From NCBI GenBank assembly GCA_030431255.1, contig JAUIJL010000006.1:155850-219849 (forward strand): a stretch of 64,000 nucleotides of DNA, read 5' to 3'. The position numbers and the translations under genes are program-made. The notes beneath the pieces are model-generated. The model searched no databases and had not been told where the DNA came from. It saw nothing but the letters and a program-made list of their open reading frames with translations. How positions within the stretch are numbered: position 1 is the stretch's first letter; each line of letters starts with the position of its first letter. Source of the DNA: Thermoanaerobaculia bacterium. Its GTDB lineage: Bacteria > Acidobacteriota > Thermoanaerobaculia > Multivoradales > J023. Shown in pieces: positions 3,132 to 64,000 of this stretch.

Positions 3132-3387
3132 GGCGGCAGTCTCGCAGAATCGGAAACTGCGGGAAACCCCTCCGATTCGACAGCCGACCGGCCACCGAGT
3201 CGGAGATTGCCTCACCGATGCGCCGGTGCTAAAGTGCCGCCGATTAGCCTGCTCTGCTGATTTCGTGTATTTGTCGATTCTAGTCTGGAACTCTTACCGA
3301 AGACCCATACATGCCCCATTGGCCCAGCTCCGCGGACGGTTGCCGACAGCGGCGTCATCCCGCTGAAGTCGGCCGACGAAGCCCGCA

Positions 3388-4605: not shown

Positions 4606-6370
4606 TCAAAAGCCGGACGAGCTGGAGCCGGACAAGCTGACACAGGACGAGCTGGAGCCGCATCGTCCCAGGCTCGTCGGCCTCGTACGCGGGCCGCTCA
4701 TCCCCGGGCTGCTCGTTCTCGGGATCCTCGGCTTCGGCTTTGCCAACCTTCACCACTACAACATCACCTGGGACGATGCGCTGGGCGACCTCTTCTACGG
4801 CCAGCGCTATCTGAGCTTTTTCCTGAGCTGGGATCCTGTCTATCTGGACTTTGACGGCGACCCTTATCCGCCGGATCACACTCCCGACCTGAGCGCTTCA
4901 CCGTTTCGAGGACGCCCTTGGGAGTACTATCCGGTGGCCAATACCTTGGCGGCGGCCACCTCGGCCGTGCTCTCGGGCGCCTTGGGATGGATGGACCCAT
5001 TCGACGGATTTCACGCGCTCAATCTCTTCCTTGCCGCGAGCCTGGCGTGGGTTCTGTTCACATTTCTCGAGCGCCGATTCGACGGGGTTGTAGCCCTTGC
5101 GGCCGTGGTGTTTCTATTCGGCTCCCCGCGAATAGTGGCCCACATGATGGCCAACATCAAAGACTTTCCCCTGATGGTGCTGTTCAGCCTAGGAGCCCTG
5201 GCCTTCTATCGGGCCTTCGAGAGCGGATCGGCCCGTGGGCTGTGGCTTTTCGGCGGGCTGCTCGGCTTGGCCCTCGGCACCAAAGCAAATGCCCTCTTCT
5301 TGCCCTTAATCCCTGCCCTGACCCTCTTGCTCGGGGGGGTGCCCGAGGCTTGGCGGGGGAGAGAGGCGCGCCTTTTCTCCACCTTGATCGGCGCCGGCGC
5401 TCTCGGCGTGGTGGTGATGGTCGTCACGTGGCCCTATCTTTGGGGCGATCCTATCGGGGGCTTCTCAGAGCATCTGAAATTCGTGCTCTCCCGAAAGGAG
5501 TCCACCTCCCAGGGCAGTGTGGCGCCGGCTTACGAAGCGATCCTCTACACCACGCCGCCGTTGTTCCTCGTCGCTTTTGCATTGGGCGCCGTGCTTTCCG
5601 TCGGATCCTTGCGCCGAGGGCATCGCCCGCTGCTTTTCCTGTGGGTGTGGATCGCCGCGGTGCTCGGTCGGTACCTGCTGCCCCAGGCGATCAACTACGA
5701 TGGCGTCCGCCATTTCCTGGAGCTCTTTCCGCCCATGGCCGCGATTGGGGCCTACGGGCTCGCTACGGTCGCCGGCCGAGTGGCCACGCCACGGGACCCG
5801 CAGATTCGCTCCCAACATCATCGAGCTCTTTTCGTTAAGCTGGCCTTAGTGCTCCTATTCACCCTGCCCGGGGCCGTGCAAGTCTTCAAGACCCATCCCT
5901 TCCAATTGGCCTATTGGAGCTCATTGGCCGGGGGCTACCCGGGGGCCCGGGCATCGGACCAGCCCCAGGCTTCGGATTATTGGGGTTTGAGCTATCGGCT
6001 CGGCATGCGATGGCTGAACGAAAACGCGGAGCGCGACGCTCTCCTAGCCGTGCCGGTGGTCGAGCATGCCGTGCGACTGGTGGCACCGCAGCGCTTGCGG
6101 TCGGACATCCAGCTGCTGCCGATCACCACGCCGTTTTCGCCCCACATCCAACCGGAGCGGCTACGGCGCACCCTCGAGCTATCTCTGGAACGACCCCTCT
6201 ACGTGATGTTCGTAGAGCGCAGGGATTGGATGAACCCCCTGATGGTGGATTGCTTGCGGCGACTAAAACCCGTCAAGGAATGGCGGCTGGAAGGCGATCC
6301 GATCCTGCAGATCTACCGCTATCAGCCCCCTCGCCGGGGCGAGCGTCTCAGGCAAAGCGGTCAGCCGTAG
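4595..6370 (+). CDS. GT-C fold membrane glycosyltransferase (ArnT/PMT-like, GT39/GT83-type; polyprenyl-phosphate-sugar dependent)
   Basis: About 11 predicted TM helices with an N-terminal extracytoplasmic loop carrying acidic residues (ITWDDALGD). Overall ArnT/PMT_2-like architecture (…GTKANALFLPLIPALTLLLGG…). ATG at 4595 overlaps the upstream stop by 11 nt. Confidence 0.6.
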   Translation: MPDDQKPDELEPDKLTQDELEPHRPRLVGLVRGPLIPGLLVLGILGFGFANLHHYNITWDDALGDLFYGQRYLSFFLSWDPVYLDFDGDPYPPDHTPDLSASPFRGRPWEYYPVANTLAAATSAVLSGALGWMDPFDGFHALNLFLAASLAWVLFTFLERRFDGVVALAAVVFLFGSPRIVAHMMANIKDFPLMVLFSLGALAFYRAFESGSARGLWLFGGLLGLALGTKANALFLPLIPALTLLLGGVPEAWRGREARLFSTLIGAGALGVVVMVVTWPYLWGDPIGGFSEHLKFVLSRKESTSQGSVAPAYEAILYTTPPLFLVAFALGAVLSVGSLRRGHRPLLFLWVWIAAVLGRYLLPQAINYDGVRHFLELFPPMAAIGAYGLATVAGRVATPRDPQIRSQHHRALFVKLALVLLFTLPGAVQVFKTHPFQLAYWSSLAGGYPGARASDQPQASDYWGLSYRLGMRWLNENAERDALLAVPVVEHAVRLVAPQRLRSDIQLLPITTPFSPHIQPERLRRTLELSLERPLYVMFVERRDWMNPLMVDCLRRLKPVKEWRLEGDPILQIYRYQPPRRGERLRQSGQP

Positions 6371-7230
6371 ACGATCCACAGCACGAGCACTCCCCAAAGC
6401 ACGACGTTGACCACGAACGGCACGTCGCTGAGCAAGGCTTCCGTGGGATTGCGCTCTTCGGGTTGTTGGTAGATCAGGTAGAGATAGCGAAAGATGCCGA
6501 AGAGCACCAAGGGGATGGTGTAGATCAGGTTGTCGGTCCCGAAGCGCTCGATGGTGCCCTGGTCCACGCAGTAGAGGGCGTAAGACACCACGGTCGACGC
6601 GGTCACCACATTGATCATCTGATCGAGAAAGGCTGGGCTGTAGTGGCTCAACACCGAGCGATGGCTGGCGGCATCACCGGCCAACAGCACCAGCTCGTGG
6701 CGGCGTTTCGAAAAGATCAAGAAGAGGGCCAAGAAGATGCTGCACAGGAGGAGCCACTTGGACACTTCCACGTCGATCGCCGCGCCACCGGCCATCACCC
6801 GCAGAACATAACCGCTCGACACCGCCATCACGTCGAGGATGACCTTGCGCTTCAGCCAGCTCGAATAGAGCAAGTTGATGACGATATAGACCGCGAGAAT
6901 CGCCAAGAAGACCAGATTCAGGCTGAAGGAGATGGCCATGGCCAACAAGCCGAGCACCACCGCGGCCCCGGTCGCGACCGGCACCGGCAACGCTCCGGAA
7001 GCAATGGGGCGATTTTTTTTGAGGGGATGGAGGCGGTCGTCCTCCCGATCTCGCAGGTCATTGACCAAATAAATGCAGCTGGCAGCAAAGCAGAAGGCAA
7101 TGAAGGCCAAAGCCACCTTGATCAACAGGTCAGGGTCCGCCAATTGCTCGGCAAAAACAATCGGGGCCAACACAAAGACATTCTTGACCCATTGAATGGG
7201 CCGCATCGCTTTCATCAACGGCAAGATCAT
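6361..7230 (-). CDS. UbiA-family decaprenyl-phosphate phosphoribosyltransferase-like (DPPR synthase, Rv3806c-like)
   Basis: MILPLMKAMRPIQWVKNVFVLAPIVFA...CIYLVNDLRDREDDRLHPLKKNRPIASGAL is near-colinear with the mycobacterial Rv3806c Asp-rich NDxxDxxxD region. About 9 TM helices. ORF track starts at 7392; the likely start is ATG 7228-7230 (MILPLMK). Confidence 0.8.
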   Translation of the reverse strand: MILPLMKAMRPIQWVKNVFVLAPIVFAEQLADPDLLIKVALAFIAFCFAASCIYLVNDLRDREDDRLHPLKKNRPIASGALPVPVATGAAVVLGLLAMAISFSLNLVFLAILAVYIVINLLYSSWLKRKVILDVMAVSSGYVLRVMAGGAAIDVEVSKWLLLCSIFLALFLIFSKRRHELVLLAGDAASHRSVLSHYSPAFLDQMINVVTASTVVSYALYCVDQGTIERFGTDNLIYTIPLVLFGIFRYLYLIYQQPEERNPTEALLSDVPFVVNVVLWGVLVLWIVYG

Positions 7231-7241
7231 GGGCGTATTAT

Positions 7242-9818
7242 ATGGATCCGATGTCCGTTTCGCCCGACGATCACGCCCAAAAGTCAACCCGGGGCCAGAA
7301 TTTGCGAGCTCGAGCCGCGTCGATCTTGAAGAGCCGATTTGCCCGTTTCTACATGGCCCCGACCTTGTTGGTGATGGCCATGGCCGTTGCACCGCTGGTC
7401 AGCGGCTCGGGAACCCTCTACCACCGTGACGTCCTGGTGAGCCACTACCCGCTGAAAGCGGCGCACGCGCAGGTCATGGCCGACGGCCATTTCATGCCGT
7501 TGATCGACCCCTACCGATCCGGTGGCCAGCCTCTGATGGGCAATCCCAACGCTTTGCCCTTCTATCCCACCAACTTGCTCTATCGAATCGCCGAGCCCCT
7601 TTGGGCCCTCAACGCCCATTTTTGGCTGCATCTCTTGGCGGCGCCCCTGGCTTTGTTTTGGCTCGCCAGGGTTTGGGGGCTGTCTCGACCCGCCGCCTGG
7701 GCAGCGGCATCGACCTACGCCGTCAGTGGCTACGTCCTATCGCTGATGAATCTCTACAACCTGGTGGCGGCCGCGGTTTGGGTGCCCGCCTTTGCCGCGG
7801 CCTGCCTGCGTGCCGGACAAGATCGTCGGGCCGGGCCGTCCGTGGCTATCACCCTCACTTGGACCCTGCTGATCCTCGGGGGTGACCCCATGACCGCCTT
7901 GCTGGGAGGGGTCCTCGGGCTCAGCACCTGGCTTCTGCGCCGACCCGTCCAGGCGCGGGCGGCCACGGTTTCGCTGGTCGTCTCGGTGACCCTGGGCACC
8001 TTGATCGCGGCTCCCATGTGGATCGAGTTTCTCCGCATCTTGCCCTTGTCCTATCGGGGCTATTGGCGTTACTCCGTGGCCACCAGCTTGGCCCAAAGCT
8101 GGAATCCCTGGACCGTGCTCGATTGGATCGTGCCTTTCTTCTTCGGCAATTTGGATTACAACTTTTGGGGCTACTCCTTCTTCGGCGGCAACCCCCCGCT
8201 GCTTTACTCCCTCTTTCCCGGCGTATTGGCGATCGCCCTCGTGCTCGCCGCCGGCCTGCCGGGCCGGTCGAAGGTGATCGTCGAGAGCGCTGCCGATGGA
8301 TCGGGCCCGGGGGAGGCGGAGCAAGAAGAGGAAGCCCCGGGGAAGACCTCGGGGAAGGCCTCGGACGAATCTCCTTCCGAGACCCACTCCACAAAACGGC
8401 TCCAGATTTGGTGTTGGGCCTGGATCGGAGCCGGGGCCTTTGTGGCCGCGGGTTTCTACAACCCGGTGATGCACTGGCTCTACCAGCTACCGGGAGCTTC
8501 GGCCCTCCGCTATCCGGTGAAAGTTTGGATTCTGGTCGCGATCACGGCATCTTTGCTCGCCGGAGTCGGTTTCGAGCGATTTCTGGCCGGGGATCGACGC
8601 CTGAGCCGAATTTTGGGGTTTGCGACCTTGGGCTATGGCCTGCTTTGGGTAGCCCTGATCATTCTTCCGCCTCCCCTGGCCAAGGCCCTCCAAAGCCTCA
8701 ACCCCGAAGTGCTGGCCACCGGGCTCTTCGCGCATCAACGGCTGCAATGGGCGACCACTACGTTCTTTGTGCTCATCGGCTGTCTCGTCCTCTGGTTGAC
8801 GGCTCGCCAAGCCGATCGGCGATCCGCCTTTCACGTCGGCGCGGTGCTTTTGGTGTTACACACCGCCCTCCAGAGCTTCCTCCTCAATCCGCTGATCGCC
8901 ACCGACGAGTCGTCTCATTACACCGGGCTGCCCGAGGTCGCTCGCAGCCTACCGCCCGGATCACGGGTGGCCCACGGCACCTTCAGCGAGATCTTCGGCC
9001 CACGGGACAAGTCGATCTTCCCCAAGCTCCCCGGCACGGAATTTTTCTGGCTGACCCGTGAGGAATTCGCCTCTTTCGCCCATTTTTCGGCGGTTCCCCA
9101 CGGATACCGATTCGAGCTCAATCAAAGCCCGGAAGGTCTCGACTCGTTCTTCAGCCTCGCTCTGGGCAAAGCTTTCAAGAACCTGGACGATCTCTCGCGG
9201 GTTCGCCTGCTGGCCGCGGCGGGAACGGAGCATCTGCTGTTGCCGCGACCGCTGGACGCTTCGGCCGAAGCCCAAGCCACCCTCGTAACCCGGACCCCCG
9301 GCAGCGCATTCGACACCTGGCACTACGCCCTCGAGCGGGTCTTGCCGGAGCACCAGGTGGTGGGGAAGGTCCGCCGGGCGGACGACATGAATCAGGCCCT
9401 GAGCTTGCTGGCGGATCCCGACCTCGACCCCCGCGTCACCGCCGTGCTGCCCGCTCCGGGCCCAGAGCTCGACGGCCCGGGAGGGACCGCCGAGCTGGTC
9501 TCCGAGTCCCTGGAACGCATGGAAGTGACGGTCAGCTCGCCGAGCGGAGGGCTTTTGACCACCCGCCGCGCGTGGCTGCCTATCTACCGAGCCTGGGTCG
9601 ACGGCGAGCCGGCCACCGTGGAGAAGGTCAACATCTACAAGCTCGGTGTCCTCGTGCCGGCCGGAGAGCATTCCGTGGTGATCGCCACGGATCGCCGTCC
9701 CACCCTCGCGGCCGCCGCCACGTCGTTCACGGCACTGGCTTTCGTGCTCTTCTCGGCAGGCCACCGGCGACGCAAGACCCGCCCCGAGTTGGAAACCGAA
9801 GGGCCTGCTGCCCGATGA
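7242..9818 (+). CDS. YfhO-family GT-C membrane glycosyltransferase
   Basis: 858-aa polytopic membrane protein. N-terminal ...SGSGTLYHRDVLVSHYPLK...DPYRSGGQPLMGNPNALPFYPTNLLY matches the conserved YfhO N-terminal region (B. subtilis SHYYPFK...NPY...FYPLNLL); length also matches. Start uncertain (ATG 7242, or 7353 MAPTLLV). Confidence 0.7.
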   Translation: MDPMSVSPDDHAQKSTRGQNLRARAASILKSRFARFYMAPTLLVMAMAVAPLVSGSGTLYHRDVLVSHYPLKAAHAQVMADGHFMPLIDPYRSGGQPLMGNPNALPFYPTNLLYRIAEPLWALNAHFWLHLLAAPLALFWLARVWGLSRPAAWAAASTYAVSGYVLSLMNLYNLVAAAVWVPAFAAACLRAGQDRRAGPSVAITLTWTLLILGGDPMTALLGGVLGLSTWLLRRPVQARAATVSLVVSVTLGTLIAAPMWIEFLRILPLSYRGYWRYSVATSLAQSWNPWTVLDWIVPFFFGNLDYNFWGYSFFGGNPPLLYSLFPGVLAIALVLAAGLPGRSKVIVESAADGSGPGEAEQEEEAPGKTSGKASDESPSETHSTKRLQIWCWAWIGAGAFVAAGFYNPVMHWLYQLPGASALRYPVKVWILVAITASLLAGVGFERFLAGDRRLSRILGFATLGYGLLWVALIILPPPLAKALQSLNPEVLATGLFAHQRLQWATTTFFVLIGCLVLWLTARQADRRSAFHVGAVLLVLHTALQSFLLNPLIATDESSHYTGLPEVARSLPPGSRVAHGTFSEIFGPRDKSIFPKLPGTEFFWLTREEFASFAHFSAVPHGYRFELNQSPEGLDSFFSLALGKAFKNLDDLSRVRLLAAAGTEHLLLPRPLDASAEAQATLVTRTPGSAFDTWHYALERVLPEHQVVGKVRRADDMNQALSLLADPDLDPRVTAVLPAPGPELDGPGGTAELVSESLERMEVTVSSPSGGLLTTRRAWLPIYRAWVDGEPATVEKVNIYKLGVLVPAGEHSVVIATDRRPTLAAAATSFTALAFVLFSAGHRRRKTRPELETEGPAAR

Positions 9819-12118
9819 CCCCAACCCGGCTGCCCAGATCGGCCTACGCGTGGGCAGTGGGCTTTGTGTCTCTGGCGGTCCATGGGCTGTTGTCCCTGTG
9901 GTTCCCGGCCCCTCTTTTCGAAAAATACACGGTGGCAGCGGAGCTCTTTCTCGACGGCCGAATGGCGTCGGAGCGATGGCTGGATTTCAGCCCCCTCTAC
10001 CTCCATCTGGCCATGTTCCTGCGTCGACTCACGGAGGACGTGGAGTCGGTGCTGCTGATCCTGCAGCTGGGCTTGCTAGCAGCCACCTCGGCCCTGTTCT
10101 TTCTCTGGGCGGAGCGGCGGCTCGGTATTCGCTGGGCGCTGCTCGGGGCGGCGGTGATCACCCTCGATCGGCATGTGCTGATCTATTCCAGGATTCTCGA
10201 GCCGGAAGCGATCTTCCTCTTTCTGTTGATGCTCTTCCTCTATTGGGTGGACGGTCCAGAAGGGGAGCCGACGCGCCCTTTCGCCGCGGGTATCGTCGGG
10301 GCTTTGGGCATCGCCACCCGGCCGACCTTTCTACCGATTTGCTTGTGGGTGCTCGTGCTCTGGGGCTGGCATCGACGCGAGCAGCTGCGCCCGTGGGCGC
10401 GGCCGGCGGTCTATTTCTTGGCCGCCCCAGCCCTGATGCTGATGCTGCTCGCCGTTCGCGCGCAGGTCGTGGCCGGATCCTGGCGCGCGCCGACCATGAA
10501 TCCGGGCACCGTGCTCTACGAAGGCAATCAGCCCATGTCTCGGGGTACCAGCGCGGTCTACCCCCCTCTCGTGCATCAGCTTTCGAGCGGACAGGACTCC
10601 ACGCCGGATCCGGCCCACGTTTACTACCGAGAGATCGCCCGCCGGGAAGTCGGCTCCGGCGTGTCGGGAGACTTTGGAGACGGCGACCGAGGTGGCCGGC
10701 TTCTGGGGGTTCGCGACGTCAACCGGCTGTGGACACGGCGGGCCCTGGATTTCACCCTCGACCACCCGGGATTCGCCCTTCGCCGGCTCCAAACCAAGCT
10801 GCTCTACGCCTTCCACAATTTCCGCTGGCATGATCTTCCCGCGGCCTGGCTCTACGATCGAGCCTTGCCCCTTTCCGGGGTGCCGTTCGCCCTGCTCTCC
10901 GCCCTGGCGCTGCCCGGTCTGCTGCTGGAGATTCGCGGCCGACGGAACAGCCTCTTGCTCTACGGATTGTTGGGATCTCAGCTCTTGGTGATGCTGGTCT
11001 TCTACGTCTCACCACGCCAGCGCCTGATGTGGATCCCATTGCTGATCTACTTCAGCCTCGTCACCCTTCGCGATACGGTCCGTCAGCGCACCCTCTGGCC
11101 AGCCTTGCTGGCCCTGGTGCTGGTGCCCGCGTTCACCTTGCCGGACGACGCCATGCGGGACGAGATCTACCAGCGGAATCAGATGGAGCTGGCTCGGCCC
11201 ATCCTCCAGGAGATCTCAGGTCGAATCGCGGACGGTGAGCCCATAAGCGCCATGGCCGACGGCTTCGCCCAAGCTCTCGCCCACGCTCCTTGGTGGCTCG
11301 AGGGCCTTCAACCGGCTTTTCTCGATCGCTCGGGGCAAAGTCTAGAGCGGGCCATCGCGTCCAAGCTCGATCCCAGCCGGCTGTCGCTCTTCGATCAGGC
11401 CGAGATGTGGATGCGAGCGGGCGACGTAGAGCGGGCCCGAGCGCTCTTGCTCCAATGCCTAGAAACGGGAGAGCAGCTCTATCGAAAGGGTCGCCTCAAC
11501 ACCTCACCGGAGCTGCTCTTGGCGAGATTGGACCTGCTCGATGGGCGAAGGCAGGACGCCGAGGTCCGGCTCCGACGAGGGCTGAGAGCCCATCCCGGAG
11601 ATGCCTTTCTACTGGCAGAGCTGGTCGCCTTGGAATCGACCACCCACGCCGCAGGGGTTGGATCTCCCCTCTTCGACAGCCTGGAGACCTACTACGGCCG
11701 GCAAAGCGCACATTTTCTGGTGGGTCGAGCCTTGTTGGCCCAAGACGAGCCCGCCGCCGCCATCCGACATCTGGAGATCACCGTCCACGCTTTTCCTCAG
11801 CTGCGGGAGGCCCGGTTGGCCTTGGCGGCAGCGTTTTTTCGGACGAGCCGGCTCGATGACGCGCTGAAGCAGGTCCTGGTCGCGGATCGCATCCGGGCCG
11901 AGCCGGCGCTCTATGCGGACGATATGGCCGAGATCTACGGAGCTGCGGCCCAACAATCTTCTGCTCCCGATCAGGTGTTGCGGGCCGCCCAGGGTCTCTT
12001 CCACTACGGCCGGCCCCACCGCGCCTTGAGGGTGCTCGACCGACCTTGGCCCCCGGCCGAGCAGAAAAAAGTGGCCGCGCTTCAGCGGCGTCTACGTTCG
12101 GCGATCTCAAAACCCTAA
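9815..12118 (+). CDS. GT-C-like polytopic membrane protein with C-terminal TPR domain (PMT/DUF2723-like putative glycosyltransferase)
   Basis: ATG at 9815 overlaps the upstream stop (ATGA). N-terminal ~480 aa have about 11 TM helices. C-terminal ~250 aa carry TPR-like helical repeats (…AIRHLEITVHAFPQLREARLALAAAFFRTSRLDDALKQVL…). Confidence 0.55.
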   Translation: MTPTRLPRSAYAWAVGFVSLAVHGLLSLWFPAPLFEKYTVAAELFLDGRMASERWLDFSPLYLHLAMFLRRLTEDVESVLLILQLGLLAATSALFFLWAERRLGIRWALLGAAVITLDRHVLIYSRILEPEAIFLFLLMLFLYWVDGPEGEPTRPFAAGIVGALGIATRPTFLPICLWVLVLWGWHRREQLRPWARPAVYFLAAPALMLMLLAVRAQVVAGSWRAPTMNPGTVLYEGNQPMSRGTSAVYPPLVHQLSSGQDSTPDPAHVYYREIARREVGSGVSGDFGDGDRGGRLLGVRDVNRLWTRRALDFTLDHPGFALRRLQTKLLYAFHNFRWHDLPAAWLYDRALPLSGVPFALLSALALPGLLLEIRGRRNSLLLYGLLGSQLLVMLVFYVSPRQRLMWIPLLIYFSLVTLRDTVRQRTLWPALLALVLVPAFTLPDDAMRDEIYQRNQMELARPILQEISGRIADGEPISAMADGFAQALAHAPWWLEGLQPAFLDRSGQSLERAIASKLDPSRLSLFDQAEMWMRAGDVERARALLLQCLETGEQLYRKGRLNTSPELLLARLDLLDGRRQDAEVRLRRGLRAHPGDAFLLAELVALESTTHAAGVGSPLFDSLETYYGRQSAHFLVGRALLAQDEPAAAIRHLEITVHAFPQLREARLALAAAFFRTSRLDDALKQVLVADRIRAEPALYADDMAEIYGAAAQQSSAPDQVLRAAQGLFHYGRPHRALRVLDRPWPPAEQKKVAALQRRLRSAISKP

Positions 12119-12199
12119 ACACACCGTCACCACAGCGGCGCCTGAGACGGATGCCCAGGTGCCTGTGGTCAAGGCGACGGAATACGATAGGCTCGCGCC

Positions 12200-13978
12200 A
12201 TGATTGGCAACCTTTCGCAGACCGATCGAGCACTTCGATTCGTCGGCGCCTTTGTTTTAGCTCTCATGATCGGCCTTGGGATCTGGACTTTGTTCCAGAT
12301 TTCCGCCAACCGGGCCTATCAGGTCGATGAGGTGGAGCACCTGCACGCCGCCTACAATCTGCACATCGGCAAGCTGCCTTATTACGACTTCTATCAGGTC
12401 CATCCACCGCTCCTGCACTTCATGCTGTATCCGTTCACGGATCCGGACGACCCCGAAGCCAGCTATATTCGAGGCCGCCATCTTTCTTTGGTGGTGCTGT
12501 TGATCTCCCTGGCGCTTTGCGCGGGATGCGCAGCTCGCCTCTCCAATCCCCTCGGGGGTCTGATCGCCTTGGGTCTTGCGCTTTCCCATACGACTCTCAT
12601 GGAACGGGGAATGGAGATCCGACCCGACAACTCGGTGAATCTCCTGGCTTTTCTGGCCCTCTATCTGGAGCTGAGGGCCGACAAACCCTCGATCAAGCGT
12701 TATATGTTGCAGGGATTCCTGCTCGGCCTCGGTTTGCTGCTTGCCCAAAAGACCGCCTTTCCCAGCTTCGCCTTCGGTTGCTTGTGGCTGTTCACCGCGA
12801 TTCGGATTCGCAACCTTTGGTGGGCCATTCTGCCGGTTTGCGTGTGGGCCGTTCCCGCCTTGCTCGGAGCAGCGTGGCTGCTGTCGAACGGCATCCTTCA
12901 CGAAGCTTTCGTCTCCATTTTCGGCGGCGCCTACGACGCGGCTTCCGGGGCTGAGCACCGAGATACCTTCAGCCCTTGGGGTTACATCAAGAGCGAATCC
13001 GAGCGCAACGTGCCTTTTGTGATCTTCGGCGTCTTGGGCACCCTGCGGGGTTTGCTCGATCTCCTGGCACCCTCCAAATGGCTGAGCAAGCAACGTGCTC
13101 CTTTCCCCATTCAGGCCGGCCGACCGTTCGCCTTCCCAGCGTTCTTTACTTTGATCACGATCGCTTCTTTGTGGCTGAACCCGTTCCCGTGGCCGTACGT
13201 GCACCCGGCTCCGGCTCTGGCCCTGGCGATGATGGCCGGCGCCCTCATCGGGGGCATGTTGGTGCAGCGGCTCAAGTCTCCCTTTTCGTATACGGCCTTA
13301 TTCGGAGCCGCGCTAGTCATCGCCATGGCCGCCATGGTCAGCGCGCCGCGCCTGATCGAGAAATCCCAGCATCGGGGCGATCCCAACAGCACGGGATTCC
13401 AAATGTTCGTGCTCAAGGAGCTGACCCGCATTACCGAGCCCGACGACGCGGTCTTCGATTTGGTGGGCTTCTATTTCCGACCTGACGCCTATCCCGCCTA
13501 CAGCCTGAGCAAGGATTTGGTGGGTTGGTACAAAGACGGCGCCTATCCGCGCATGATCCCGACCCTGCGCCAAAACGAGACGGTGGCGTTCATCCACACC
13601 TATCGCAAGAAATGGCTGCCCGACGAAGAGCTCGACTTCCTGAAACACCGCTTCATTCGTTATTTCGGCAATATTTTCATTCTCGGCACCGACGTCTCCA
13701 ATTGCGAGCCGGACAAGGAGTATTTCTTCGAGGTGCTGAAAACCAAACCCTTCGTCTACGAGGGACCGGGCGAAATGACCGTCAACGGCCGGCCGTTCAC
13801 CCGCGGCGTCCTCGGCAAGGGGCATCACGTCATCACCGTCAAAGACAACCAGGGCCAGGGGCGGTTGATCATGGACACGCCTGCCCCCAAACCGCCTTTC
13901 CCGCAGGACAAGATTCCCGGGCCGGGCAATATGTTCCGAGCGCAGGTGGACGAAGAAAAATATTGGGTCTTCGACTGA
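12200..13978 (+). CDS. GT-C fold membrane glycosyltransferase, ArnT/PMT-like
   Basis: N-terminal TM then loop with YQVDEVEHLHAAYNL (acidic D/E motif of GT-C first loop). Multiple TM helices, C-terminal soluble domain. Confidence 0.6.
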   Translation: MIGNLSQTDRALRFVGAFVLALMIGLGIWTLFQISANRAYQVDEVEHLHAAYNLHIGKLPYYDFYQVHPPLLHFMLYPFTDPDDPEASYIRGRHLSLVVLLISLALCAGCAARLSNPLGGLIALGLALSHTTLMERGMEIRPDNSVNLLAFLALYLELRADKPSIKRYMLQGFLLGLGLLLAQKTAFPSFAFGCLWLFTAIRIRNLWWAILPVCVWAVPALLGAAWLLSNGILHEAFVSIFGGAYDAASGAEHRDTFSPWGYIKSESERNVPFVIFGVLGTLRGLLDLLAPSKWLSKQRAPFPIQAGRPFAFPAFFTLITIASLWLNPFPWPYVHPAPALALAMMAGALIGGMLVQRLKSPFSYTALFGAALVIAMAAMVSAPRLIEKSQHRGDPNSTGFQMFVLKELTRITEPDDAVFDLVGFYFRPDAYPAYSLSKDLVGWYKDGAYPRMIPTLRQNETVAFIHTYRKKWLPDEELDFLKHRFIRYFGNIFILGTDVSNCEPDKEYFFEVLKTKPFVYEGPGEMTVNGRPFTRGVLGKGHHVITVKDNQGQGRLIMDTPAPKPPFPQDKIPGPGNMFRAQVDEEKYWVFD

Positions 13979-14046
13979 GGTCCGTTCGATTGAGCCCTTT
14001 CGGTCGGGCCCGTTCTTTCAGCTTTTCTAGATTCCAAGGAGCACCT

Positions 14047-15216
14047 ATGGCCAGCTCACCTTCCGAGCCGACATCCGACGACAGCCCGATGATCTCCGTG
14101 GTCATCCCGTGTTTGAACGAGGTCCAAAGTGTCGGCAAATGCGTCCAAAAAGCCTTGGCGGGCATCGAGCGCTCCGGGCTCACCGGCGAGGTGGTGGTCA
14201 GCGACAACGACTCCGAGGACGGCTCGGCGGATGCGGCCCGGGCCGCCGGCGCGCGGGTGGTGCACGAGCCGCGACGGGGTTACGGCTCCGCCTATTTGCG
14301 CGGCTTCGAGGCGGCTCGCGGAAAATATTTCGTCATGGGCGATGCCGACGAGACCTACGATTTCGAAGATATCCCACGGTTTATCGAGCCCTTGCACGAA
14401 AAGGGCTTCGACATGGTCATGGGCACCCGGCTCAAGGGAGAGATCCTGCCCGGTGCCATGCCGTGGTCCCACCGTTGGATCGGCAACCCGATCCTCTCGG
14501 GCATGTTGAAGCTGCTCTTCCGCACTAAGATCTCCGACTCCCACTGCGGTATGCGCTCCTTCACCCGCGACGCCTACGAGCGCATGGGGCTGCGGACCAC
14601 GGGCATGGAATTCGCGTCGGAGATCGTGGTCAACGCCTTGCGCAACCAGCTCAAGATCGACGAGATCCCGATCACTTACTATCCGCGGGAAGGGGAGTCC
14701 AAGCTCCAAGGCTTCCGCGACGCTTGGCGCCACGTGCGTTTCATGTTGCTCTTTTCACCGTCCTACCTCTTCCAACTGCCGGGTTTCCTCTTGTCGCTTT
14801 TCGGCCTGCTGTCGATCGGCCTGCTGGCCGCCGGGCCCCGGGAGCTGCTGGGACGCACCTGGGATTTCCACGTGCTGCTCTTCGGCTGCTTGTCGTTGAT
14901 TCTCGGCTACAACCTGGTGATTTTCGACATCCTGGCCAAGCGCTTTTCCGTGGCCGCGGGTTTCGTCAAACCCAACGAATACCTTTCGGGGTTGGTGAGA
15001 TTCTTCACCTTGGAGAAGGGCCTCGTGCTCGGCGTGCTGGTCTTGATCGCCGGTCTCGGCCTGGAGCTCAAAATCGTCTACGACTGGGCCCAAGGTGGCT
15101 TCGGCCAGCTGATGGCGGTACGCGGGGTCGCCCTGGGCATGACCGCCATGGTGCTCGGCGCCCAAACCGTCTTCGCGTCGTTCCTATTCAGCTTGACGTT
15201 GATCCAGAGGCGCTGA
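14047..15216 (+). CDS. GT2 polyprenyl-phosphate sugar synthase (ArnC/CsbB/GtrB/DPM1-like) with C-terminal TM helices
   Basis: ISVVIPCLNE...VVVSDNDSEDGSA...GDADETYDF...MPWSHRWIGNPILS is the classic GT-A DxD fold of the Dpm1/ArnC family, followed by 2-4 C-terminal TM helices. The ORF-track long N-terminus is rejected; start at ATG 14047 (MASSPSEP). Confidence 0.8.
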   Translation: MASSPSEPTSDDSPMISVVIPCLNEVQSVGKCVQKALAGIERSGLTGEVVVSDNDSEDGSADAARAAGARVVHEPRRGYGSAYLRGFEAARGKYFVMGDADETYDFEDIPRFIEPLHEKGFDMVMGTRLKGEILPGAMPWSHRWIGNPILSGMLKLLFRTKISDSHCGMRSFTRDAYERMGLRTTGMEFASEIVVNALRNQLKIDEIPITYYPREGESKLQGFRDAWRHVRFMLLFSPSYLFQLPGFLLSLFGLLSIGLLAAGPRELLGRTWDFHVLLFGCLSLILGYNLVIFDILAKRFSVAAGFVKPNEYLSGLVRFFTLEKGLVLGVLVLIAGLGLELKIVYDWAQGGFGQLMAVRGVALGMTAMVLGAQTVFASFLFSLTLIQRR

Positions 15217-15930
15217 CTTCTTGACCGCCACGACCAGGAAACACTTGGCGATCCACCAGAAAATCGGCAGCCGTTCCAATAAGGCGACCCCCAGACGGTA
15301 GTGCCAGGGCCCGCCGGCCATGGTCAGCGAGATGTCCGCCGGGGGCACCAGGTGCATGTCGAGCTCGGGCCGACGTTTGAACATCCGCCTCAAGCCCCAA
15401 AGGGTCGGGGCGTAGCTGGCATCCTCGTAGTCTTCTCCGCGACCGGATAGGCGCAGGTAGGCGTTGGCCAAGGGCAGGGGTAAATATCCCAAGAAGGGCA
15501 GGAAATAGTGATGCTCAATGGGCCACAGCTTGTTGGGCACCACAATGTAGATCAACCCACCGGGTTTGAGGCTACGGCTGATGCGCTCCAGGGAGTCGTC
15601 GGCATTGGGCAGGTGCTCGAGCACGTTGTCGAGGATCACCAGGTCGAAGACCTCCTCCTCTTCCAGCTCCTCGACGGAGCGGTGGAGGATCTCCACATGG
15701 TCCAATCCCGAGCTCTCGGCCAACCGCGCGCCGAATTCCGCCAGCGGCAAGCTGGGCTCGATGCCCACCACCTTGCGGCAGGTACGGGCCAGCTCGATGG
15801 CGGTGTGACCATAGCCACAACCGACGTCCAACACCGCCAGCTCCTCTGCGGCTAGGGACCGAAAAGGCTCAGTGGTCGCCAAGGCCTGTCGGCAGAGCTG
15901 CTCCGCCAGAGGTCCGCGGCTTTCCAGCAT
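15184..15930 (-). CDS. Class I SAM-dependent methyltransferase
   Basis: VLDVGCGYGHTAIELA...VFDLVILDNVLEHLP...LKPGGLIYIVVPN are Rossmann MTase motifs I, post-I and II. ORF extends to 16170 but would overlap the upstream GT2 by 130 nt, so ATG 15930 (MLESRG) was chosen. Convergent 33-nt overlap with the GT2 gene ending at 15216. Confidence 0.65.
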   Translation of the reverse strand: MLESRGPLAEQLCRQALATTEPFRSLAAEELAVLDVGCGYGHTAIELARTCRKVVGIEPSLPLAEFGARLAESSGLDHVEILHRSVEELEEEEVFDLVILDNVLEHLPNADDSLERISRSLKPGGLIYIVVPNKLWPIEHHYFLPFLGYLPLPLANAYLRLSGRGEDYEDASYAPTLWGLRRMFKRRPELDMHLVPPADISLTMAGGPWHYRLGVALLERLPIFWWIAKCFLVVAVKKSAPLDQRQAE

Positions 15931-16040
15931 GGAGTCGCCGTGGGCATCGTATTGCGGCCGATGCTCCGTTTTCTGTTCTTGTGCCGATGTTTCCTGTGCG
16001 GTCACGCTGGATCCTTCCCATATCGCCCTGGACAACCGGA

Positions 16041-16868
16041 TCAGCCGTCGGCGACCTTTTGGTATCGCGCTTTGGTGCCGGCCCAGTACACCCATTTCGG
16101 CGGAAGCAGCCAAGCGATTCGTTCCATCCACATCTGAGCCCGATCCGACGCGGTCATATGCCCCATCCAATGGAGCCGTTTGGTCAGCAGCGTCGCCTCC
16201 AGGGTCCGACGGATTTTTTGGGCTTTGACCCCTTGCTCATGTAGACGATAGCGCACCTGGGCCGACTCCAGGTTGGCAAAGTGAGCATTGGCGTGGGCCA
16301 TGCGGCTCCAAAGCTCGTAGTCCTCCGCCGGCTCACCAGGATACCGATACCCACCCAGTTGCAGCGCTAGAGACTTGCGAAAGACCACGCTCGGATGGGA
16401 AATGGGATTGTGGCTGGCCAGAGCTCTGACGATATCCCGATGGGATTCCGGGAATTGACGGAAACCCAACAGCCGGCTGTGGTGGTCGATGACCTCGATT
16501 TGGGTGCCGAGCACATCGAGATCGGGATCTTGCTCAAGGCGCTTCTTTTGCTCCGCCAGACGCTCCGGCAGGGCGATGTCGTCCGCGTCCATGCGCGCAA
16601 TCCAGGGGGCACGGGCGATCCTCAGCCCGCGGTTGAGCTGTCCCACCAAAGACGACCGACTCTCCAGCCGCAGCCATCGGATGCGAGGGTCCTGAACACC
16701 CTCCATGAGATCTTCGGCCGACGACCCCGGGCTCGGATCCTCGACCACAAGGAGCTCAAAATCCCCGAATGTCTGACCCAAGATGCTGTCCAAGGCTTCC
16801 TTGAAAATCCTCGGATCCGGTCGATAGACCGGCATCAAAACGGAGAAATACGGGGTGGTTTCGTGCAT
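16041..16868 (-). CDS. Family 2 glycosyltransferase (soluble GT-A)
   Basis: FSVLMPVYRPDPRIFKEALDSILGQTFGDFELLVVEDPS...WIARMDADDIALPERL carries the GT2 DxD/DAD signature. Confidence 0.75.
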   Translation of the reverse strand: MHETTPYFSVLMPVYRPDPRIFKEALDSILGQTFGDFELLVVEDPSPGSSAEDLMEGVQDPRIRWLRLESRSSLVGQLNRGLRIARAPWIARMDADDIALPERLAEQKKRLEQDPDLDVLGTQIEVIDHHSRLLGFRQFPESHRDIVRALASHNPISHPSVVFRKSLALQLGGYRYPGEPAEDYELWSRMAHANAHFANLESAQVRYRLHEQGVKAQKIRRTLEATLLTKRLHWMGHMTASDRAQMWMERIAWLLPPKWVYWAGTKARYQKVADG

Positions 16869-17950
16869 CAGCTTTCCGTGGAGCCCGGCGACATGGAACC
16901 GTCGGTTTCAGCAGCCGTCCGTTCTACAGTGTCGGGCGGCGCGGTCCGGCTCAGGTCCGTGGGATCCGAACGTAACATGTGGACCGCGGCACCTACACAG
17001 GCGTAGAAAAGACTCAGGCTGAAAATGGTCAACGACAAGGCCACCGCCCGAGACGGGGAGATGCCTTGGGCCCCGAGAAGGGTGACGTAGACCCCCTCGC
17101 GCACCCCGAGACCGCTGACCGTGATCGGCAAGGCGATGGCCAAGTAGGTCGCGGGCATGAGATAGCAGAAGTGGATCCACTCCACCTGCAATCCGAGACT
17201 GCGGGAAACCCAGAAACAACCCACGATGTTGAGCCCCAAAGCCAACGCCTGGCAGACCACGAGGGCGATCAGCGGCCCGGCTCCCATCCGGCGCAAAGCT
17301 CCCACGGCCTCCTGGAGCTGGCGTCCCAGGGATTCTCGCCGGGTCGGGGTCAATAAGAAAGGCGACACGGCGACGACGATCATCACCGCGGCGGCGATCC
17401 ACGGCCACAGGCCGGCCAAACGCCCAAAAAGCCGGCCGAAATCCAGCTCCACCGCCGCCGGCAGGGTGACGGCCAAAGTACCGAGCACCATCATCAAAGC
17501 CACCGCCCGCTGGGCCGCCACCCCGAGGCCGACGTGGATCCAGCGTCGGGTACGGCGTCCGAGGTCGATCACCTTGAACACGTCGGCCCCCAGGCTGCTG
17601 GGCAGAAAACTGCCGACAAAGAGGGCTTCGAAGTGGGTGGCGGCGATTTGACCCCGCCGCACCTCGACCTTGAGGGCGGTCAAGCTGATGCGCAAACCCT
17701 CCGCCAGCGACAGATGCGCCAGGCCGAAAAGCGCGGCCGCGGGTAGAAACCACCGCCAAGAAATGCCGGTCCAGGCGGTCCAAATTTGCTTCGGATCCGC
17801 GTAGGTGAGAATCAGGGCCAAGAGCACCCATCCCACCACCCAGCGCCACCACCTGGCTATCCCCGAAGCCCGGGGGCTTTCTGAAGCCAGGGTGGTTTCT
17901 GAAGCCAGGGTGGTTCCCGAATCCGGCGGCCCAGCATGCTCGGATTTCAC
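16868..17950 (-). CDS. Flippase-like / lysylphosphatidylglycerol-synthase-TM-domain family membrane protein
   Basis: About 8 TM helices with an architecture like the flippase-like domain (TIGR00374 type) usually paired with GT2 polyprenyl-P glycosyltransferases. Start and stop overlap neighbours by 1-4 nt. N-terminus has an 18-bp tandem duplication (TTLASETTLASES). Confidence 0.5.
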   Translation of the reverse strand: MKSEHAGPPDSGTTLASETTLASESPRASGIARWWRWVVGWVLLALILTYADPKQIWTAWTGISWRWFLPAAALFGLAHLSLAEGLRISLTALKVEVRRGQIAATHFEALFVGSFLPSSLGADVFKVIDLGRRTRRWIHVGLGVAAQRAVALMMVLGTLAVTLPAAVELDFGRLFGRLAGLWPWIAAAVMIVVAVSPFLLTPTRRESLGRQLQEAVGALRRMGAGPLIALVVCQALALGLNIVGCFWVSRSLGLQVEWIHFCYLMPATYLAIALPITVSGLGVREGVYVTLLGAQGISPSRAVALSLTIFSLSLFYACVGAAVHMLRSDPTDLSRTAPPDTVERTAAETDGSMSPGSTES

Positions 17951-19656
17951 GGGAAGGGCCTCCGTCGCACCTTGCGCCTCACCATGCCGAACGACTCCAG
18001 CTCTTGGGGGGATACCCAGAGATAGTCCCTCCCTTTGATCAGCTGTCGGACTTGTTCTCGTTTCAGCTTATTGGCGGAAACGATGATCGGCCGATCGCGG
18101 AAGTAGGGATCGTTGCGCAGCAAATCCCAGCCGTACCACGAGCCTCCGCCGTCGATCAGCACCATGTCCGTATCCCGAGTCTCCAAGAAACGGGTGGCGT
18201 CCGCAAAGGGCTGAACGAAGGCGTGGACCTGAGCCAAGCGCACGGGTACCGCCAACATCACGGCTGCCAAAAGGCCCACGGTCACAAAGGCCGTCGCCCG
18301 ACTCTGCCCGAGCGTGCTTTTCAGCTCCTTCCAGCCGTACACCGCCAACAACACCCAATTACCGAGCACCGGCATGAAGTAGCGGTATCCCCAGCCATGG
18401 CCTTGATTGAGCTTGAAAAACCAGTAGAAGACGAAGGTGAAGGCGGCGCTCAAGGCCACATCCTGGAGAAATGGGCTCATGCGCCGAGCTTTGAATAGGC
18501 CGAGCAACACCAACACGGCCACCACCGGTGCCTGCCAGCCGACGATCATGCTCAGATTCATGCCCTGATCCGCCCATTGCTGAAAACGCGGAAAACCCCA
18601 ATCGTTGGCCATGGCGTTGACCGAGATGCTGCTCCGGGACCACCGCACCCAAGCCATCCAACCGTAGAGACCGGCGCCATAGGTGGCGGCCATCAACACC
18701 GACGGGATCCACCGACGTTTCAGGACCCACCGAAAAAGAAATGGGAAAGCGAAGAGCACATGCATCACGAATTGATGCAAGCCCATGGTCAGGAAGCCGA
18801 GAATCGCCAGGCACACCCAGCTCCATCGACGATCTTCTAGGTAGAGCCACATCCAAAGCAGGTTGAACACCAAGTGGGCGCTCATGGAGTAGAACGACAT
18901 GCCGTAGACCAAATGCACGCTGGATGTCGCCAACAGGAGGGCGGCCAGCCATCCCGCCTCCTCGAGATCCGGAAACACCCGGCGAGCCACCACGGCCATC
19001 CACCACACCGCCAACCCTGCCAGGATGGGATTGAGCAGCATTTGGGGGTGAATCGCCAGGGTCGCCGCACGCATCAGGGCGTAGATCGGCAAGTAGAAAG
19101 AGACCCAATGCTGCTGCTCGGTGACCGTAACGAAGATCGGCGTGATGCCTCTCTCGAGCGGTATCCACTCTTCGGGCAGGGGAGCGGTGAGCTCGCCGTT
19201 GAGAAAAATCTGAGCCTGAAACTCGGCGCCGTATTCGTCCATGCTGAAGGGATGGCTGTGGTAGACGGTCCGGCTGCCGACCCAGCACACCGCGCAGGTC
19301 AGCAGCGCCAGACCCACCACCCAACGGGTGCCGAGGTAGAGCCCAGGCTGGGGATCGGGCTCGGACTGCCTATCTCGGTCCAACTTTCCGCGCACGAAAG
19401 CCGCGGCCACGGCGAGCATCAACACCAAGAGCGACACGAGCAAACCCCAATGCTCGTTGGTTTCGAAGAGGGCGTAGAAGATATTCAGCTTGTTACGGCT
19501 CGAGCCGAGCTTTCCGAGGCCGTAGGACCGGCTGTAGCTCCACAACCACCATCCCAGGACGTGGATCAGGGCGACCAAGATCCACGCGCTCGGCCAGGGC
19601 TTCAACCGGCGGAGCAGCGCTTTGAGGTCGATGCGGATTTCCTGGTTCAGGTTCAT
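17947..19656 (-). CDS. Polytopic integral membrane protein of unknown family (possibly another GT-C-like enzyme)
   Basis: 569 aa with at least 12 hydrophobic helices; Trp/Tyr-rich. Lies in an operon with glycosylation genes. No diagnostic motif recognised. Confidence 0.45.
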   Translation of the reverse strand: MNLNQEIRIDLKALLRRLKPWPSAWILVALIHVLGWWLWSYSRSYGLGKLGSSRNKLNIFYALFETNEHWGLLVSLLVLMLAVAAAFVRGKLDRDRQSEPDPQPGLYLGTRWVVGLALLTCAVCWVGSRTVYHSHPFSMDEYGAEFQAQIFLNGELTAPLPEEWIPLERGITPIFVTVTEQQHWVSFYLPIYALMRAATLAIHPQMLLNPILAGLAVWWMAVVARRVFPDLEEAGWLAALLLATSSVHLVYGMSFYSMSAHLVFNLLWMWLYLEDRRWSWVCLAILGFLTMGLHQFVMHVLFAFPFLFRWVLKRRWIPSVLMAATYGAGLYGWMAWVRWSRSSISVNAMANDWGFPRFQQWADQGMNLSMIVGWQAPVVAVLVLLGLFKARRMSPFLQDVALSAAFTFVFYWFFKLNQGHGWGYRYFMPVLGNWVLLAVYGWKELKSTLGQSRATAFVTVGLLAAVMLAVPVRLAQVHAFVQPFADATRFLETRDTDMVLIDGGGSWYGWDLLRNDPYFRDRPIIVSANKLKREQVRQLIKGRDYLWVSPQELESFGMVRRKVRRRPFP

Positions 19657-21534: not shown

Positions 21535-21556
21535 GCGGGATCTCCGTCGTTTCGGC

Positions 21557-25005: not shown

Positions 25006-25153
25006 GGGGTGAGGTCGACCTCCTTAAATAAAAACGGATGTGTTTCCGAGGCCGTCGGATCTTACCAGCCAAGTCGATGGTCGACAGCCCAGTGATCGTC
25101 GACAGCCCAGTGATCGTCGACACCGTTCGTGCGGAGCGGTTACCATCGATCCC

Positions 25154-32367: not shown

Positions 32368-32383
32368 CGTTTGCTCCTCGGCA

Positions 32384-33532: not shown

Positions 33533-33542
33533 CTCGACCTCC

Positions 33543-34235: not shown

Positions 34236-34303
34236 GCTCGTATCTCCCCTATCGCCTGATGATCGGCTTCCGCCGCTGATTGCTCTCTCCAATCCGTAAA
34301 TCT

Positions 34304-46126: not shown

Positions 46127-46173
46127 GCTTCTCAATCTCCTCGCTCCCTCGAGCGAATCCAAGGGACCCACGA

Positions 46174-48985: not shown

Positions 48986-48986
48986 G

Positions 48987-51654: not shown

Positions 51655-51682
51655 GCCTAGAGATTCTCCTCGGACCCCGGGC

Positions 51683-52897: not shown

Positions 52898-52980
52898 GGT
52901 CTTAGGGCTCGGTCGAAGTCATCACGTGGAGGTCATTACAAAAAAGGAATCAGGTCTCGGATTTCTGCGGATTCTCAACC

Positions 52981-63991: not shown

Positions 63992-64000
63992 GGCGGCGGC

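Follow-up and report, generated by a model that had tools for sequence, protein, structure and literature searches.

A near-invariant divergent gene pair for a polyprenyl-phosphate phosphoribosyltransferase and a YfhO-like GT-C protein in Thermoanaerobaculia: a predicted extracytoplasmic pentofuranose system

The current study deals with a stretch of 64,000 nucleotides from a Thermoanaerobaculia bacterium (assembly GCA_030431255.1, contig JAUIJL010000006.1; the whole 64-kb stretch is called the window) and in particular with the gene of an 858-amino-acid (aa) membrane protein, F858, and its divergently oriented neighbor, the gene of a polyprenyl-phosphate 5-phosphoribosyltransferase (PPPRS). 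The window has a G+C content of 62% and belongs to an acidobacterial host lineage, and the nearest loci are those of uncultured Acidobacteriota/Thermoanaerobaculia metagenome-assembled genomes. The gene map was compiled from a list of open reading frames (ORFs), independent gene calls on identical contigs, and Pfam/NCBIfam scans. For comparison, the proteins of the window were mapped onto 80 related loci, each encoding F858 relatives, from one-genome-per-species contigs. The neighborhoods covered ±10 kb per related locus and 64 kb here, presence counts were taken from 42 loci of at least 20 kb, and an early neighborhood count was based on tblastn and phmmer. The region around F858 contains the following genes (TM, transmembrane):

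38-1192 (+): polytopic membrane protein, C-terminal 384 aa of ~530 aa, truncated at the window edge
1230-3215 (-): sulfatase/LtaS-type enzyme whose N terminus carries TM helices
3388-4605 (+): PAP2_3 membrane phosphatase or phosphotransferase (PAP2_3 71.4 bits, PAP2 33 bits)
4595-6370 (+): GT-C protein of the PMT_2 (GT39/ArnT-like) type, 591 aa (PMT_2 31.8 bits, cutoff 26.1), convergent with the PPPRS gene
6361-7230 (-): PPPRS (also DPPRS, for decaprenyl-phosphate phosphoribosyltransferase), UbiA superfamily, divergent from F858
7242-9818 (+): F858, predicted YfhO-like GT-C protein, 858 aa (855 aa with start at 7251 in the independent gene calls)
9815-12118 (+): predicted GT-C protein (PMT_2/GT39-like), 767 aa, with a TPR domain at the C terminus; the gene start overlaps with the stop codon of F858
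12200-13978 (+): putative GT-C, a 592-aa polytopic membrane protein with a weak PMT_2 match below the cutoff (E=4.4e-4, 20.9 bits)
14047-15216 (+): membrane-anchored GT2 (DPMS/AglJ/ArnC-like), 389 aa, four C-terminal TM helices
15184-16005 (-): class I S-adenosylmethionine-dependent methyltransferase, called as 273 aa (Methyltransf_11/25/31/23/12, E~1e-17)
16041-16868 (-): soluble GT2 (EpsE/TuaG-like) without TM segments (Glycos_transf_2 74.8 bits; EpsE 94.8 bits, below cutoff)
16868-17950 (-): LPG_synthase_TM (PF03706) "flippase-like" polytopic protein of the MprF-flippase-domain family
17947-19656 (-): polytopic membrane protein, 569 aa, with TM segments, possible GT-C (DUF2079 E=0.43; NF047440 E=1.1e-3)

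The original prediction had described F858, the membrane GT2, and the flippase-like protein as a three-component extracytoplasmic glycosylation module of the Gram-positive teichoic-acid type. It had overlooked PPPRS, the GT-C-like proteins encoded at 4595-6370, 9815-12118, 12200-13978, and 17947-19656, the PAP2 protein, the soluble GT2, and the methyltransferase. Its starting point, an 858-aa ORF at 7242-9818 (+) with three N-terminal motifs, is present as described: SHYPLK (residues 67 to 72), DPY (89 to 91), and FYPTNLL (107 to 113) lie on conserved columns, and H68, K72, D89, P109, and N111 occupy invariant or near-invariant family positions in an alignment of 32 sequences (A1). F858 is a real gene, because 410 homologs were found at E≤1e-3. 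They have lengths of ~770 to 860 aa and no Pfam domain, and nearly all of them are without a name or called "hypothetical"; those with a name come from Acidobacteriota, Thermoanaerobaculia, and Holophagales. The start of F858 is uncertain (ATG 7242/7251, TTG 7302/7326, or ATG 7353). A start at ATG 7242/7251 would be only 11 to 20 bp away from 7230, where the divergent PPPRS gene starts; the consensus N terminus of the family aligns near residues 29 to 31 (TTG 7326), which corresponds to a gap of ~100 bp to PPPRS, as in related loci.

The AlphaFold model of F858, calculated from alignment A1 (predicted local distance difference test [pLDDT] 88.3, predicted template modeling score 0.90), begins with an N-terminal bundle of ~13 TM helices, which is followed by a periplasmic domain (alpha/beta plus beta-sandwich) at residues ~555 to 818 and a last TM helix at 819 to 845. 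This is the YfhO-type architecture of an N-terminal multi-TM domain, an extracytoplasmic C-terminal domain, and a terminal TM helix. In a Foldseek search of the PDB the top matches were active transferases, namely, AftD (1.4e-7), ArnT (1.3e-6), Emb proteins, and STT3. Judged by its model, F858 is predicted to be a real membrane glycosyltransferase of the GT-C type. At the sequence level, an alignment-profile search of all PDB sequences returned no GT-C match for the F858 family, with a single spurious hit at E=1.5. R62 and D63 directly follow TM helix 1 in the first periplasmic loop, and R62, D63, H68, K72, H126, H130, R143, R272, R423, and K427 are conserved to at least 95% over F858 and its paralogue family taken together. 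In solved GT-C enzymes and in ORF12 of Citrobacter youngae, the Asp suggested to be catalytic sits just past the first TM helix (PMC11127046). By this analogy, D63 is the likely catalytic base of F858.

The N-terminal motifs had been read as a signature of the YfhO family, and the lack of a significant family hit had been named beforehand as the result that would refute this. The search with the Pfam profile YfhO (PF09586) gave E=2.4 and 6.8 bits (gathering cutoff 28.5) in a 33-residue C-terminal stretch (residues 782 to 814), and NCBIfam gave no match, so direct assignment by either database was discarded and the family match claimed for the signature fell with it. A remote kinship did emerge via intermediate sequences. 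With the A1 profile, 46,785 cluster representatives were retrieved at E≤1e-3, because of which F858 is placed in a very large superfamily. Seven of ten scanned sequences, among the weakest of the 150 matches listed, had colinear subthreshold YfhO matches at model positions ~16 to 161 and ~767 to 823 of 835. One of these sequences is P0265, the head of a sister paralogue family, which the A1 profile matches at 3.1e-94. In the P0265 family, 15 of the 120 members listed carry a precomputed YfhO annotation; ten such relatives scored 24 to 35 bits on PF09586, restricted to model positions ~3 to 161, and five of the ten exceeded 28.5 bits. F858 is remotely homologous to YfhO via the P0265 sister family, which straddles the Pfam cutoff. 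It is thus a distant YfhO relative linked by intermediates and not a member of the family by the curated criterion; the YfhO-like N-terminal pattern is borne out as kinship via the P0265 family, and F858 itself has no match.

A second YfhO-like GT-C protein of the P0265 type, near the Pfam YfhO cutoff, is encoded in tandem, between PPPRS and the orthologue of F858, in ~13 to 14 loci (L034, L049, L050, L052, L062, L063, L067, L071, and others, at ~6 to 10 kb in each). The 1,640-aa protein P0230 was considered as a Rosetta-stone fusion and was dismissed, as it consists only of two fused F858-like GT-C proteins.

The product of the divergent gene at 6361-7230 (-) scored 314.5 bits on the NCBIfam equivalog NF008977 (cutoff 234), decaprenyl-phosphate phosphoribosyltransferase, and 86 bits on Pfam UbiA, and it matched the structure of Mycobacterium tuberculosis Rv3806c (8j8j) at E=2.4e-42. 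The motif N-D-x2-D-x3-D is intact (YLVNDLRDREDDRLHPLKKNRPIASG; NDLRDREDD), and its residues are needed for the activity of C. youngae ORF15 (PMC11127046). A UbiA homolog is present in 40 of the 42 related loci. Both genes were located in 72 of the 80 loci, and PPPRS is divergent from F858 in every one of these 72. The distance between the two starts is 24 to 294 bp in 58 loci and 2.2 to 3.1 kb in the other 14, where it agrees with the location of the P0265-type paralogue. Around the retained divergent pair, the other neighbors vary among loci. The most conserved partner of F858 is therefore PPPRS, the gene that the first reading had missed, and family, fold, and near-invariant divergent pairing are established for both enzymes.

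A skeptical view of this pairing would be that F858 has the GT-C fold and no transferase activity, e.g., as a scaffold, a polymerase-like protein, or an acceptor-binding subunit, and that the adjacency of the UbiA gene is inherited synteny devoid of functional meaning. All loci come from one phylum, and other neighbors are often conserved as well, such as biotin carboxylase in 31 of 46 loci, which is what such a view would expect. Against it stand the conservation of an Asp directly after TM helix 1 and of several basic and His residues across two paralogue families, the retention of the divergent pair as the surrounding genes change, and the active transferases among the best structural matches. 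Taken together, we consider an inactive F858 very improbable.

The membrane GT2 at 14047-15216 was correctly recognized by the original prediction as a CsbB/GtrB/ArnC-type enzyme 4.2 kb downstream: it has a Glycos_transf_2 domain (PF00535, 93.9 bits), four C-terminal TM segments, and a precomputed GT2_TM_C match. The other result named beforehand as refuting, a GT2 devoid of C-terminal TM helices, was therefore not obtained. On NCBIfam it scored 145.8 bits for AglJ, 93.4 for the halophile Dol-P-hexose transferase, 83.6 for PpgS, and 46.4 for ArnC, all below the equivalog cutoffs, and its solved relatives are the Pyrococcus dolichyl-phosphate mannose synthase PfDPMS (5mlz, 7e-17) and ArnC (1e-11). 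These matches identify it as a membrane-anchored polyprenyl-phosphate glycosyltransferase of the DPMS/GtrB/ArnC/CsbB class. A GT2-like gene of any kind occurs in 24 of the 42 loci; a true orthologue (score >440) occurs in ~12 to 13.

The flippase-like polytopic protein is likewise present (LPG_synthase_TM, 88 bits at a cutoff of 33.4; TIGR00374 borderline with 43.0 versus 43.2 bits), but it is not of the GtrA/GtcA type known from teichoic-acid systems. The pairwise tblastn/phmmer count had placed its gene in only one of the 42 loci, an artifact of divergence. With a Pfam scan of locus L028 and a small hidden Markov model (HMM), 18 related loci were seen to have an LPG_synthase_TM gene immediately following the GT2 orthologue. 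For this HMM the first iteration alone was used; the iterated model drifted into the neighboring GT2 because stop-to-stop ORFs in high-GC DNA cross gene borders. Their counterparts in the window are encoded on opposite strands, with the methyltransferase and the soluble GT2 between them. The LPG_synthase_TM protein is a partner of the GT2 and not of F858, and it is a candidate flippase for the GT2 product. The two most plausibly form a second, separately conserved pair of a polyprenyl-phosphate-hexose synthase and a putative flippase, which most likely feeds at least one of the other GT-C-like proteins (9815-12118, 12200-13978, 4595-6370, or 17947-19656). The three genes of the original prediction do not appear to be a conserved triad: the flippase-like gene goes with the GT2, whose orthologue is found in ~12 to 13 of the 42 loci, and UbiA is found in 40. 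In several related loci (L028, L040, L041, L047, L058, L068, and others), the GT2 orthologue, always with an LPG_synthase_TM gene after it, is flanked by GT4 glycosyltransferases.

The strongest competitor as a donor source for F858 is nevertheless this GT2, which would make a polyprenyl-phosphate-hexose or -N-acetylhexosamine that the LPG_synthase_TM protein flips and F858 transfers in a YfhO-like manner, with PPPRS serving another GT-C protein. F858, the next two membrane proteins, and the GT2 lie on one strand with overlaps or short gaps, the GT2 belongs to the DPMS/ArnC class with C-terminal TM helices, a flippase-like gene is part of the cluster, some GT2-like gene is located within 10 kb in 24 of 42 loci, and F858 shares its remote homology with YfhO. 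The comparative data point the other way, since beyond the ~12 to 13 loci with the orthologue about 12 more have an unrelated-scoring paralogue, whereas PPPRS is present in 40 of 42 and always divergently adjacent. Moreover, the LPG_synthase_TM gene tracks the GT2 and not F858, no GtrA-type flippase was detected in the window or the 80 loci, and between the GT2 and the three genes upstream of it, the last of which is the third GT-C-like gene, there is a terminator-like hairpin (13984-14009). A GT2-dependent F858 is thus possible but unlikely. The hairpin (+ strand, 11 pairs, weak T tail, between the 592-aa gene and the GT2) is a pattern match only.

PPPRS and F858 probably constitute an extracytoplasmic pentofuranose system, i.e., an acidobacterial form of the systems known to decorate surface glycans with five-carbon sugars, as far as genes and models allow a prediction. 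Three-component pentofuranose systems are biochemically established: after PPPRS has made polyprenyl-phosphate-ribose-5-phosphate from phosphoribosyl pyrophosphate (PRPP), the 5'-phosphate is cleaved off by a phosphatase, and the donor is exported by a flippase and used by a GT-C enzyme, which transfers the sugar to a periplasmic glycan, with optional epimerases deciding between ribofuranose (Ribf) and xylofuranose (Xylf) or arabinofuranose (Araf) (PMC11127046). Transferred to the window, the UbiA-type PPPRS would move ribose-5-phosphate from PRPP onto polyprenyl phosphate at the cytoplasmic face of the membrane, and the 5'-phosphate would be taken off by a phosphatase, for which the PAP2 protein at 3388-4605 is the local candidate. 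Polyprenyl-phosphate-ribofuranose would then be flipped to the periplasmic side, where F858, with D63 as the likely base, would pass the pentofuranose to a periplasmic or outer-leaflet acceptor glycan. Donor, sugar identity, phosphatase, flippase, and acceptor are the inferred parts of this scheme. The most likely donor of F858 is a polyprenyl-phospho-pentofuranose and not a CsbB-type polyprenyl-phosphate-hexose, because PPPRS is so much more constant among the related loci than the GT2 orthologue. The extracytoplasmic logic of the original prediction, with a lipid-linked donor, a flip, and a periplasm-facing GT-C protein, is thereby supported, and its CsbB-type hexose donor is disfavored.

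Several observations weigh against the pentofuranose system. The one-strand arrangement of F858 upstream of two membrane proteins and the GT2 would allow the GT2 to be the donor synthase. A PAP2 homolog is present in only 4 of the 42 related loci, and PAP2_3 proteins can be phosphotransferases instead of phosphatases. None of the recognized polyprenyl-phosphate-pentose flippases (MATE, SMR, or GtrA) was found, with Pfam scans of the cluster genes negative for MATE. The pairing may be partly inherited synteny, and not independent evidence, in loci that all belong to one phylum. Finally, epimerase genes could lie elsewhere in the genome, as the searches covered ±10 kb per locus and the 64 kb of the window.

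The missing functions were sought with the DprE1-like, DprE2-like, HAD, and GtrA proteins of annotated DPPRS clusters on Flammeovirgaceae and Lactococcus plasmids as queries. Apart from two weak generic short-chain dehydrogenase/reductase (SDR) matches, no DprE1-, DprE2-, HAD-phosphatase-, or GtrA-like ORF was detected in the window or the 80 loci, and PPPRS carries no fused HAD domain. The most economical prediction for the sugar is probably ribofuranose, because no epimerase was found within the ±10 kb covered per locus. Alternatively, PPPRS and F858 might make and use polyprenyl-phosphate-arabinofuranose (or -xylofuranose), comparable to mycobacterial arabinan synthesis or Pseudomonas pilin arabinosylation, with epimerases encoded at other sites of the genome. 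F858 indeed has its most extensive structural match in the arabinofuranosyltransferase AftD, AftA also scores high, and DprE1/E2 or an ORF13-type epimerase is often part of known PPPRS systems (PMC11127046; Flammeovirgaceae plasmid). However, characterized systems cluster their epimerases with PPPRS, and neither a DprE1- nor a DprE2-like ORF lies in the regions searched, which makes Araf or Xylf improbable compared with the ribofuranose predicted for the PPPRS-F858 pair. The hypothetical, possibly GT-C, membrane proteins encoded beside DPPRS on the two plasmids had no phmmer similarity to F858, and so F858 is probably a separate lineage. The gene orders are hypothetical protein (533 aa)-DPPRS-HAD-IB phosphatase-GtrA on the Lactococcus plasmid pLLF27D (L083) and DPPRS-FAD oxidoreductase-SDR-hypothetical protein (406 aa) on the Flammeovirgaceae plasmid (L084); both clusters look like mobile pentofuranose glycosylation modules of the Ribf and Araf type.

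With respect to the other members of the cluster, the 767-aa protein (9815-12118) combines TPR matches with many homologs that have precomputed PMT_2/PMT matches, one of them named "glycosyltransferase family 39 protein." Its AlphaFold2 model (pLDDT 90) retrieved TPR proteins and STT3 in Foldseek (2.6e-3 to 6.8e-3, prob 1.00). It was tried as an F858 paralogue and rejected, as hhalign found no detectable kinship (E=0.29); it is a separate PMT_2-like GT-C protein. The 767-aa GT-C protein occurs in 10 of the 42 loci, and the PMT_2 GT-C protein (4595-6370) accompanies F858 in 10 of 42, the closest clade. The 592-aa protein (12200-13978) has TM segments and an orthologue only in the closest relative, L003, and the gene at 17947-19656 is the first of the minus-strand operon that holds the flippase-like gene. 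The region may encode up to six GT-C-like proteins, and only three of them, F858 and the products of 4595-6370 and 9815-12118, are well supported. The PAP2_3 protein lies 2.6 kb from the region of the F858/PPPRS pair, and in L017 a PAP2_3 ORF stands beside UbiA. Homologs of the truncated membrane protein at 38-1192 (+), without a Pfam match, are encoded within 10 kb of the GT-C gene in 14 of 42 related loci. Two conserved Arg/Pro-rich "families" obtained by clustering unassigned neighboring ORFs were spurious wrong-frame products and were discarded. In the reading favored here, the whole locus would be a multi-GT-C cluster that assembles or decorates a periplasmic glycan and draws on two lipid-monophosphate sugar donors.

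The acceptor was addressed via the genes for lipopolysaccharide (LPS) biosynthesis, and the remaining features of the window are relevant here:

after 19656, up to 27196: three more sulfatase-family genes and a flavoprotein gene
55180-56730: waaA
56727-57770: lpxK
57767-58768: GT9 gene

Contrary to the original description of the module as next to waaA/lpxK, these genes are ~37 kb from its end and have as neighbors genes of type II secretion or type IV pili and the gene of an ECF sigma factor. In the relatives, lpxL (11 loci), lpxK (15), and waaA (14 of 46), an ECF sigma factor gene, and a T2SS-F gene follow ~4 to 11 kb downstream of F858, with lpxL/lpxK/waaA at 4 to 8 kb in 11 to 15 of 46. 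This loose synteny would suggest an LPS-related acceptor, a weak lead, because the unrelated biotin carboxylase after F858 is even more constantly adjacent and synteny within one phylum is a poor guide. The same lpxL/lpxK/waaA block lies at 51 to 58 kb of the window, inverted and ~37 kb off (compare L013, L072, and L082). Its distance and inversion relative to the relatives thus indicate a large insertion or rearrangement, which now holds glycan, sulfatase, efflux, and aconitase genes (44198-58768 compared). A far-reaching and rather unlikely extension would be that the pair has expanded in this genome into a cluster of as many as six GT-C-like proteins, with two synthases of lipid-monophosphate sugars, PAP2, and LtaS/sulfatase-type enzymes, and builds a pentofuranose-containing polymer assembled in the periplasm or a ribofuranosyl modification of LPS/lipid A-core in Thermoanaerobaculia, as a diderm counterpart of mycobacterial arabinan assembly via hitherto unrecognized YfhO-related pentofuranosyltransferases.

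The sulfatase-family proteins at 19675-21738 (-), 21557-23431 (-), and 25040-27196 (+) share a C-terminal motif, which may be a sorting or anchoring tag; the first ends in ...EQLKSLGYLD and the third in ...QLEALGYLGGSDDN. Those at 19675-21738 and 21557-23431 are paralogues in tandem, and their longest ORFs overlap. An ORF with an IS200-like Y1 transposase domain (29897-30877 [+]; Y1_Tnp, E=1.1e-7) separates the glycan cluster from an ABC efflux operon of the MacB type (31204-35530). At the right end, 60001-64000 has a G+C content of 72 to 73% versus ~62% elsewhere, a sharp compositional step, and it holds a 1,362-aa ORF with Calx-beta and lactonase-type beta-propeller domains (59903-63991 [-]).

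Thermoanaerobaculia and Holophagales, in which the F858 family is widespread, are common inhabitants of soil and sediment, almost all of them uncultured. If the pentofuranose system is correct, a testable function, pentofuranosyl transfer from polyprenyl-phosphate-ribose, would be available for a large family of ~780-residue "hypothetical" membrane proteins without Pfam or NCBIfam annotation, and the range of three-component pentofuranose systems would grow by a new phylum and by a GT-C lineage related to YfhO. The PPPRS/GT-C pairing would then be a simple genomic marker for the prediction of ribo- or arabinofuranose in uncharacterized envelope glycans.

The closest characterized counterpart among diderms is the C. 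youngae O1/O2 system, which consists of the PPPRS ORF15, the MATE protein ORF14, and the GT-C/GT136 enzyme ORF12 (Kelly et al. 2024, PMC11127046). Both systems have a diderm host and a UbiA-type PPPRS with the same catalytic motif beside a GT-C protein with a periplasmic C-terminal beta-rich domain. In contrast to C. youngae, PPPRS lacks a fused HAD phosphatase domain here, the sole local candidate being the separate PAP2 protein, and neither a MATE flippase nor an epimerase was found. Compared with ORF12 as described in that paper, F858 is larger, with ~13+1 TM helices versus 11 (PMC11127046), and it is of the YfhO-like lineage in a locus with several further GT-C-like genes.

The mycobacterial decaprenyl-phosphate-arabinose (DPA) pathway (Rv3806c, Rv3807c, DprE1/E2, AftA-D, and EmbA-C) follows the same overall logic. 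Its 5'-phosphatase is likewise a separate enzyme, and the PAP2 protein is analogous to Rv3807c, a member of the PAP2 family. Unlike in mycobacteria, no DprE1/E2 genes are nearby and the host is an acidobacterial diderm with LPS genes; F858 has no sequence similarity to any Aft or Emb protein in the profile search of PDB sequences, and its likeness to AftD is at the level of the fold.

The YfhO/CsbB/GtcA systems glycosylate teichoic acids in Bacillus, Staphylococcus, and Listeria (PMC8035078, PMC5836110). They resemble the present locus in the architecture of the GT-C protein, a TM domain followed by an extracytoplasmic domain and a final TM helix, and in the clustering of a membrane GT2 with a flippase-like gene. 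The differences are the lack of a GtrA/GtcA flippase, a conserved partner that is PPPRS and not a CsbB-type GT2, a GT2 with four C-terminal TM helices instead of two that is closest to archaeal DPMS/AglJ, and a diderm host without a teichoic acid acceptor. The ArnC/ArnT modification of lipid A with aminoarabinose differs in that no ArnA/B/D/E/F genes are present here and the ArnC match of the GT2 reaches 46 bits versus a cutoff of 529.

A literature search found no paper that connects DPPRS to YfhO-like proteins and none that deals with systems of this kind in Thermoanaerobaculia; the class of mechanism is established, and the GT-C lineage, the phylum, and the near-invariant pairing are absent from the searched literature. 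The ancestry of F858 is closest to YfhO, and the functional likeness of the pair is closest to the pentofuranose systems of PPPRS and GT-C proteins and to the mycobacterial DPA pathway. If the prediction is true, Gram-positive YfhO, mycobacterial Aft, and enterobacterial GT136 enzymes would be united in one mechanistic scheme.

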